Notes: generated from the sequence alone by a model not told the origin. A stretch of 64,000 bases of DNA from Candidatus Stammera capleta (GCA_015134375.1 CP043980.1:96384-160383), one strand, 5' to 3'; numbered from the stretch's first letter, positions 18,643 through 19,039 are shown. A program made the numbers and translations.

Positions 18643-19039
18643 TAATTTTGTCTTATCCCATTTAATATTTATTATTATTATTATTTATTTTTATTTATTT
18701 ACTAACAATATTATTTATATATATATATATATATATATATATATATTATATATTATATTATATATTATATTATATTATATTATATATACGTATAACATTT
18801 TACTATATACATTTATTTAATCTTTACTATAAACTAATTTAGATAAATAAAAATTTTAAAATATGTAAAAAAATTTAGATTAAGAATTAATATAATACAT
18901 AAAAATTTATAAGTCAATAATTATATTTTTTTTTTTATATATTAAATATTTTATTTGATTTAATTAAAATTTATTATAAATATTATTGATAATTTTAATA
19001 ATTTAAATTATAATCAATCAATTAATTTAGATAAATGAA
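18643..19039. other. candidate replication origin region (largest intergenic gap, upstream of mnmG)
   Basis: This is a 397-bp non-coding gap between divergent genes. Third-codon-position T/A preference and majority gene orientation both switch here. The layout matches E. coli oriC-gidA-atp. The gap contains an easily melted TA microsatellite. No convincing DnaA box was seen. See the finding at 18643-19039. Confidence 0.45.
18716..18788. repeat. compound AT microsatellite: (TA)~15 followed by TTATA/TTATATA units
   Basis: 18716-18746 is an uninterrupted TA dinucleotide run. 18747-18788 has TT steps spaced 7,5,7,5,5,5 nt apart (TTATATA TTATA TTATATA TTATA TTATA TTATA ..). Confidence 0.9.

Follow-up and report, generated by a model that had tools for sequence, protein, structure and literature searches.

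In Escherichia coli the chromosome origin, oriC, lies between mnmG (gidA) and mioC. Buchnera aphidicola, a reduced enterobacterial symbiont that retains dnaA, has its oriC, which contains two DnaA boxes, upstream of gidA (cited in PMC4389277). In Blochmannia, an enterobacterial symbiont of insects, a putative origin found by GC skew adjoins mnmG, dnaA is intact, pseudogenised or lost by lineage (Williams & Wernegreen 2015, PMC4389277), and counts of DnaA boxes are uninformative (PMC4389277). For Stammera, the depositors of the genomes state in their preprint (Garcia-Lozano et al., bioRxiv 10.1101/2023.12.12.571295) that the origin was identified by GC skew (iRep), after which, in their words, 'OriC sites were then set'. 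Candidatus Stammera capleta is an extracellular, pectinolytic symbiont of tortoise beetles that uses genetic code 4 and carries its pectinases on one or two plasmids of 2.5-9 kb (published descriptions, including bioRxiv 10.1101/2023.12.12.571295). Here we analyse a 64,000-nucleotide stretch of its chromosome (GCA_015134375.1, CP043980.1:96384-160383; "the window" throughout), for which an original prediction, made from the sequence alone, had proposed a replication origin in the 397-bp spacer between a 5'-3' exonuclease gene and mnmG.

The locus resembles E. coli oriC in standing beside an mnmG gene that points away from it and is followed by the atp operon, and in having an AT-rich, easily melted segment nearby, and the reversal of strand bias described below falls 0.4-2 kb upstream of mnmG. 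It differs from the E. coli system in that DnaA, DnaC and IHF/HU were not detected and that the spacer has no DnaA boxes, GATC sites or 13-mers; in addition, the exonuclease gene stands in the place of mioC and rsmG has been lost. With Buchnera it shares a reduced enterobacterial background and an origin at the mnmG/gidA-atp junction, but Buchnera keeps dnaA and recognisable boxes, whereas this Stammera strain has neither. The likeness to Blochmannia extends to a skew-predicted origin beside mnmG, to a patchy distribution of dnaA within the genus and to DnaA-box counts that carry no information, and here too we find a single orientation-independent reversal, located beside mnmG, together with patchy loss of dnaA. 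Blochmannia is, however, intracellular and has about 700-790 kb, whereas Stammera is extracellular, has about 250 kb at 15% GC and reads UGA as Trp. The published Stammera oriC concerns the same genus, the same locus and the same kind of evidence, and the depositors' origin falls in the homologous spacer. That placement rests on raw GC skew, whereas the orientation-free synonymous sites used here point about 1 kb further left, to a position that varies between species.

One reversal of strand bias in the 246-kb contig

The genome studied (G000) is a 253-kb assembly of three contigs (245.9, 4.7 and 2.75 kb; GC 15%), and the window corresponds to positions 96384-160383 of the chromosome contig, C1. 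Genes were called by a simple longest-open-reading-frame (ORF) rule under genetic code 4; reading TGA as Trp is needed for many of them to stay in a single frame. A single origin-type reversal of mutational strand bias occurs in the 246-kb contig, and it is independent of gene orientation. The cumulative GC skew of the whole chromosome has one global minimum, at window position 18,834, within the spacer as the original prediction had expected, and the cumulative GC and keto skews have one minimum at C1 112-116 kb, equivalent to 16-19.6 kb of the window. The extremum of the AT skew, which had been expected at the same place, was found elsewhere: the cumulative AT-skew maximum is at 17,762, outside the spacer and left of the exonuclease gene. 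The cumulative minimum of the keto skew, at 17,814, likewise lies left of that gene. The reversal divides the contig into replichores of 115 and 131 kb, and the opposite reversal is found at the contig ends. The ends, with the Illumina adapter sequence CTATCGTGACTGGAGTTCAGACGTGTGCTCTTCCGATCT opening the contig at C1:1-39, thus coincide with the terminus-type extreme of the skew, which indicates that C1 is a broken, uncircularised and unrotated assembly.

Raw skew sums two strong effects, the purine richness of coding strands and the G/T richness of leading strands; we therefore separated them. At fourfold-degenerate sites, minus-strand genes on the left of the locus and plus-strand genes on its right carry T at 72% and A at 26%, and plus-strand genes on the left and minus-strand genes on the right carry A at 62% and T at 35%. 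The synonymous A/T preference (T about 65% in leading-strand and about 30% in lagging-strand genes) reverses once in 246 kb, between 17.0 and 19.0 kb. When third-position bias was corrected for orientation across 236 ORFs, genes before numbers 117-120 read as 'fork leftward' and those after as 'fork rightward', with a handful of exceptions, and a least-squares change-point of this bias falls between window positions 16.5 and 19.04 kb. Intergenic DNA behaves in the same way, with an AT skew of +0.22 on the left and -0.16 on the right. Because genes of both orientations change class and intergenic DNA flips as well, the reversal is of the replication type and independent of gene orientation. Genes that oppose the trend of their replichore have a GC skew of about 0 and an extreme AT skew.

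Gene orientation itself diverges within the window, as had been pointed out, and genome-wide just 61% of genes are on the leading strand. The codon preferences tallied by eye for pnp, groEL, mnmG, atpA, atpD, valS and the ompA-like gene were borne out when counted; the exonuclease gene, which had been listed among the T-preferring genes, does not prefer T.

Position of the switch relative to the exonuclease gene

An origin in the spacer would make the exonuclease gene a leading-strand gene, and this gene and the neighbouring ompA-like gene are the only two that discriminate between positions. Over fourfold families together with ATT/ATA, the exonuclease gene has a synonymous T/(A+T) of 0.33 (27/81), with T 17 and A 17 at fourfold sites and 10 ATT to 37 ATA codons for isoleucine. 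Leading-strand genes (n=111) have a mean of 0.655 (standard deviation 0.055, minimum 0.50) and lagging-strand genes (n=76) a mean of 0.295. Under leading-strand usage the binomial probability of the observed value is P=5e-9, or P=3e-27 when pooled over four genomes, and the third-position G:C count is 6:6 in the exonuclease gene versus about 8:1 in leading genes. The codon usage of the exonuclease gene is lagging-like; the fork would therefore cross it rightward, with the two forks diverging to its left, at 17.06-17.93 kb. On the other side of the spacer, mnmG is strongly leading-like from its first codons.

The likelihood of a change-point supports the same interval (Table 1). Relative to the best position, a switch in the spacer is 20.0 log-likelihood (lnL) units worse, or 19.1 units worse with parameters taken from the local flanks; a switch in the gap between ptsH and the ompA-like gene is 18.5 units worse, and one in the spacer between the ompA-like and exonuclease genes 3.3 units worse. 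When sites were bootstrapped, the 95% interval was 17001-17971, and 0.2% of replicates fell at or beyond 18643. The cumulative AT-skew maximum (17,762) and keto-skew minimum (17,814) coincide with this position. The codon flip that had been assigned to the spacer thus takes place about 0.7-1.6 kb further left. On these statistics the reversal falls at 17.06-17.93 kb, between the 3' half of the ompA-like gene and the exonuclease 3' end, rather than in the spacer, and we consider it probable that the switch is situated left of the exonuclease gene body altogether.

Species-level genomes of the genus number at least 45 and measure 200-300 kb, each accompanied by one or two small additional contigs, and the gene order groEL-cutA-ptsI-ptsH-ompA-exonuclease, followed across the spacer by mnmG-atp, is conserved genus-wide. 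The three closest relatives of G000 are G015, G001 and G010, which together with it form a four-genome clade. Their exonuclease T fractions are 0.33, 0.34 and 0.43, respectively, ompA is lagging-like in all three, and the spacer as the switch is disfavoured by 23.7, 17.5 and 9.7 lnL units. In a joint fit of the four genomes a step in the spacer is 61 lnL units worse than the best step, whose position is about 400 bp to the left of the exonuclease 3' end. The exonuclease gene is leading-like (0.57-0.64) in G006, G011, G008 and G014, which belong to other clades, and so no bias intrinsic to the gene explains the result.

Across 12 Stammera genomes the best switch ranges from about -2 to +1.7 kb from the mnmG start, with weakly parameterised cases at about +3 kb; it lies within -2.1 to +3.2 kb in 11 of the 12 and at about -6 kb in G012. 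It is found, for example, at +1.7 kb in G014 and at -1.1 to -1.6 kb in the G000 clade. These offsets between species are supported by more than 10 lnL units in both directions, G008 and G005 are the only genomes in which the spacer comes within 2 lnL units of the best position, and the position of the switch does not track dnaA state. G012 is divergent: an extra 223-amino-acid ORF with no Pfam match lies between its exonuclease gene and mnmG, its strand bias is weak, its best switch is about 6 kb left of mnmG and its groEL is lagging-like.

Several points weigh against a sharp switch at 17.06-17.93 kb. The T fractions of successive quarters of the ompA-like gene are 0.14/0.46/0.45/0.47 in G000 and 0.21/0.37/0.44/0.51 pooled over the four genomes; the first quarter in G000 is strongly lagging-like and the other three are intermediate, and a single sharp switch therefore fits imperfectly. 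The raw cumulative GC-skew minimum falls inside the spacer, largely because two divergent G-rich coding strands meet there. The spacer also holds the least stable duplex of the chromosome, and it has the classical position of oriC beside mnmG. Furthermore, a skew switch reflects long-term mutational history and not necessarily the present start site, and the close relatives that serve as replicates share ancestry.

The spacer, its neighbourhood and the replication genes

The layout on which the original prediction was built is present in full: mnmG, on the plus strand, points away from the spacer and is followed directly by atpB-E-F-H-A-G-D-C, and the exonuclease gene is divergent on the minus strand. 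The spacer is also the largest non-coding stretch in the window, as had been noted, since a larger gap at 27317-27740 (424 bp) contains four tRNAs; genome-wide it is not the largest. It contains no ORF, tRNA or Rfam match, and an Rfam search of 16-28 kb found nothing between 16.0 and 27.3 kb, a tRNA cluster at 27.4-27.7 kb being the sole match. The genes rsmG and atpI are absent around mnmG-atp.

The (TA)15 run and TTATA repeats that had been put forward as an unwinding element are where they were described, and the run is the longest of its kind in G000. Judged by nearest-neighbour stacking energies, the tract is the least stable 60- and 100-bp duplex in the 246-kb contig and ranks second at 200 bp. 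Its instability is therefore quantitatively real in G000, but the tract is missing in the closest relative. Neither G015 nor G001 has the TA run, whereas G010 does, and the spacer is a local minimum of duplex stability only in G000 and G010. The tract is a microsatellite rather than a set of 13-mers, and it is not conserved. The spacer has no DnaA box with one mismatch or fewer, in line with the earlier failure to find a convincing one, and within it there is no GATC, no 13-mer repeat and no sequence similarity to E. coli oriC. Alignments of the spacer with those of the relatives yield short common blocks only, with no conserved core, and it is barely alignable even with G015. We infer that the 397-bp spacer is mainly a divergent promoter region with a lineage-specific TA microsatellite; by position it is the counterpart of E. 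coli oriC on the mnmG side.

Two further features of the spacer were recorded. The 12-mer AATTTAGATAAA occurs twice (18836-18847 and 19024-19035), the second copy stopping 4 nt short of the mnmG start codon, and both copies are kept in G015, whose spacer is otherwise poorly conserved. The scan for promoters and terminators returned a total of sites not above that of shuffled sequence (51 versus 55 expected); its candidates in the spacer are listed with the other features in Table 1.

Table 1. Coordinates of features around the strand switch (window positions, except where C1 is given)
Feature	Position	Strand	Remarks
ptsH (HPr)	16258..16515	-	Pfam PTS-HPr; T fraction 0.65, log-likelihood ratio (LLR) +12.2; last clearly leading-strand (leftward-fork) gene
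ompA-like outer-membrane protein gene	16720..17751	+	Pfam OmpA_membrane on residues 34-213 only
Strand-switch support interval (2 lnL units)	17055..17926		Binomial change-point likelihood; best 17896-17905
Hairpin	17779..17825		AAACCACTTA-loop-TAAGTGGTTT, GC-containing stem, where ompA and the exonuclease gene converge; overlaps the stop codon of the latter
5'-3' exonuclease gene	17815..18642	-	Stand-alone (polA remnant); Pfam 5_3_exonuc_N and 5_3_exonuc
Spacer	18643..19039		397 bp, GC 7.1%; divergent promoter region of the exonuclease gene and mnmG; raw GC-skew minimum inside
TA microsatellite	18708..18788		(TA)15 at 18716-18745, then TTATA/TTATATA repeats; Tandem Repeats Finder (TRF) period 2, 44.5 copies
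Promoter-like site	18889..18917	-	TTGACT-17-TATATT, faces the exonuclease gene; consensus scan 10/12; candidate only
Promoter-like site	18986..19014	+	TTGATA-17-TATAAT, 25 nt 5' of the mnmG start codon; consensus scan 11/12, the region's best; candidate
mnmG (gidA)	19040..20947	+	Pfam GIDA 1e-126; LLR +132.5, all 45-codon blocks positive
atpBEFHAGDC operon	20994..27316	+	Pfam: subunits a, c, b, alpha, gamma, beta, epsilon; directly 3' of mnmG
dnaA-deletion scar	C1:219956-220460		505-bp spacer between an rnpA-like gene (219629-219955) and dnaN (220461-221594)

The C-terminal third of the ompA-like ORF (17360-17751) is low-complexity DNA of 3.8% GC, rich in Lys, Asn and Ile codons, with imperfect tandem repeats of periods 46 and 79, and it includes one of the chromosome's approximately ten most AT-rich 300-bp windows. 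The OmpA C-terminal domain is not detectable in this third, and TRF arrays extend across 17222-17770. Several relatives (G016, G008, G014 and G013) are missing ompA. The hairpin downstream of the ompA-like gene falls inside the support interval of the strand switch. Both of its arms are conserved in G015, G001 and G010 with a loop of varying length, and it is most likely the ompA terminator; the terminator scan missed it because the loop exceeds 8 nt. Within the exonuclease gene, four 9-mers resembling a DnaA box, each one mismatch away from TTATNCACA, are packed into 120 bp (18149-18270). A similar trio is found at the homologous place in G015 and none in G001 or G010. Since the latter two possess dnaA, we set this cluster aside as, probably, a coincidence of coding sequence.

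The possibility raised earlier that dnaA has been lost is confirmed: the gene is absent from G000 and deleted at the syntenic site. Within the genome, nothing scores over the Bac_DnaA cut-off (best 11.6 bits), and Bac_DnaA_C has no match. In G001 and G010 an intact dnaA lies between dnaN and the rnpA-like gene, and because the same neighbours flank the 505-bp spacer in G000, the loss is a true deletion and not an assembly gap. DnaA scores over the Pfam cut-off in 24 of 45 genomes of the genus; among the closest relatives it is absent in G015 and present in G001 and G010. With so many species keeping the gene, dnaA must have been lost repeatedly and recently. Five relatives with dnaA have no cluster of perfect DnaA boxes (TTATNCACA) anywhere in their genomes, the counts being equal to those of a reversed-pattern control. 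The preprint bioRxiv 10.1101/2023.12.12.571295 does not mention dnaA, and within the library searched no paper names both 'Stammera' and 'dnaA'; the patchy distribution may therefore be undiscussed for this genus, though the pattern is a known one.

Other parts of the replication machinery are reduced as well. G000 retains DnaB, RecA and RNase HI, and in the same genome no IstB_IS21/DnaC match over the cut-off was obtained for DnaC, no Bac_DNA_binding match for HU/IHF and no polymerase domain of Pol A (Pol I). The priA locus (C1:18298-19897) consists of two matching pieces, of 93 and 46 bits versus a cut-off of 230, in different frames; between them lie TAA stops, a K-rich low-complexity stretch and a long T homopolymer. 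From its sequence, priA would be either a pseudogene or a gene dependent on slippage. Because dnaA is deleted, DnaC and HU/IHF are undetected, priA is fragmented and DnaA boxes are absent, initiation of the E. coli type (dependent on DnaA, DnaC or IHF) cannot take place in this strain.

The two small contigs and one further irregularity of the assembly complete the description of G000. The second contig (4722 bp) encodes a GH28 polygalacturonase, a PL4-type rhamnogalacturonan lyase and a RepA_C replication protein, and the third (2750 bp) an MFS transporter and a 319-amino-acid protein without Pfam match, on opposite strands with overlapping coordinates. Eight N's occur in C1:34437-34508.

Explanations of the switch and what they mean

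We favour the explanation that the ompA-exonuclease-mnmG neighbourhood (about 17.0-19.1 kb) is the region from which two forks diverge, with the switch at 17.06-17.93 kb and a loosely anchored start, and we give it a probability of roughly 0.6. That the origin lies somewhere within 17.0-19.1 kb is very likely. The original call was thus correct at the scale of kilobases, with the reversal beside mnmG, but the cleanest measure does not support the 397-bp spacer as the switch. The ancestor of this site would be the oriC found beside mnmG in enterobacteria. In the absence of the initiator, the start of the forks may be set by the ease with which extremely AT-rich DNA opens, perhaps aided by the negative supercoiling that arises behind the exonuclease and mnmG-atp promoters as they fire in opposite directions, and loading of the retained DnaB would follow a route independent of DnaA; RecA and RNase HI are likewise retained. 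Since such a start point would be only loosely anchored, it could drift by a kilobase or two between species.

An origin in the spacer itself would require that the (TA)15/TTATA tract act as an unwinding element opened by divergent transcription and that the codon usage of the exonuclease gene be gene-specific or out of equilibrium. We find this doubtful, although much about the spacer suits it: the raw GC-skew minimum at 18,834, its rank as the window's largest RNA-free spacer, the least stable 60- and 100-bp duplex of the contig and positional homology to E. coli oriC beside mnmG. In addition, the records of six complete, rotated relatives open at the exonuclease start codon and close with mnmG and the spacer, following a GC-skew placement of oriC (bioRxiv 10.1101/2023.12.12.571295), and in G008 and G005 the spacer is within 2 lnL units of the best switch. 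What tells against it is the exonuclease gene, whose T fraction of 0.33 would be extraordinary for a leading-strand gene in G000 (P=5e-9) and more so in the pooled genomes (P=3e-27), and which shows no intrinsic bias in other clades; a step in the spacer costs 19-20 lnL units in G000 and 61 jointly. Moreover, the TA tract is absent in G015 and G001, the spacer barely aligns between relatives, and it has neither DnaA boxes nor GATC. A cause other than replication, namely a coding-strand or transcription-coupled bias at a divergent gene pair, would accord with how strongly raw GC skew follows gene orientation, but it is effectively refuted and we regard it as scarcely credible: the change of class (A 62% versus T 72%) comes at one and the same point for genes of either orientation, the orientation-corrected map has its handful of exceptions among 236 ORFs, intergenic DNA also flips, and at synonymous A/T sites the coding strand by itself has little effect, with a midpoint of 0.475 against a replication effect of +/-0.18.

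Initiation might instead be dispersed over about 1-2 kb (about 16.9-18.1 kb, perhaps reaching the spacer), or the site might have been moving recently, so that no point origin exists. The pooled values of ompA quarters 2-4 (0.37/0.44/0.51), between lagging 0.30 and leading 0.65, are in keeping with this, as is a best switch that varies by several kilobases between species, with more than 10 lnL units each way, and for the four-genome clade a linear ramp spanning -900 to +300 bp about the 3' end of the exonuclease gene beats a step by 10.7 lnL units. The ramp, however, gains only 1.8 lnL units in G000 alone, the joint gain could come from differing step positions in the four genomes, and the low-complexity ompA tail has few informative sites and maybe peculiar constraints. 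Because the ramp is significant only jointly, we make no claim for an initiation zone and consider one improbable. A more general proposal, somewhat less improbable and still unlikely in our view, is that Stammera has no sequence-defined replicator at all and that even the species that keep DnaA (24 of 45) do not need it. The fork start would then be set by transcription and duplex instability in the ompA-exonuclease-mnmG cluster, and it could drift by 1-4 kb between species and fall in coding DNA. A RecA- or R-loop-type start from rightward ompA transcription is conceivable under this proposal; it would expose the plus strand across the exonuclease gene, as the bias requires.

Three other mechanisms were considered and rejected. 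A ColE1-like R-loop formed by the exonuclease transcript and primed from a promoter in the spacer would leave that gene's coding strand exposed and should enrich it in T, contrary to observation. If leading-strand starts from a spacer origin overlapped, with first priming late, the strand left open across the exonuclease gene would again be the minus strand. Read-through from ompA is too weak a cause, since transcription alone has an effect of about 0.025 at these sites, versus the shift of 0.35 required to account for the exonuclease bias.

At the kilobase scale, an origin region here is expected and already in use for the genus, and finding it is ordinary. For annotation, it confirms the point at which to open the draft chromosome, which is unrotated. 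In genomes of extreme AT content, divergent gene boundaries attract the raw GC-skew minimum, and the orientation-corrected change-point at synonymous sites gives a position about 1 kb from the raw minimum. The broad picture is unchanged by this. Stammera joins Blochmannia as a group in which closely related strains exist with or without DnaA and the asymmetry still reverses beside mnmG. Because Stammera is extracellular, its example speaks against the idea that loss of dnaA reflects control of symbiont replication by the host cell.

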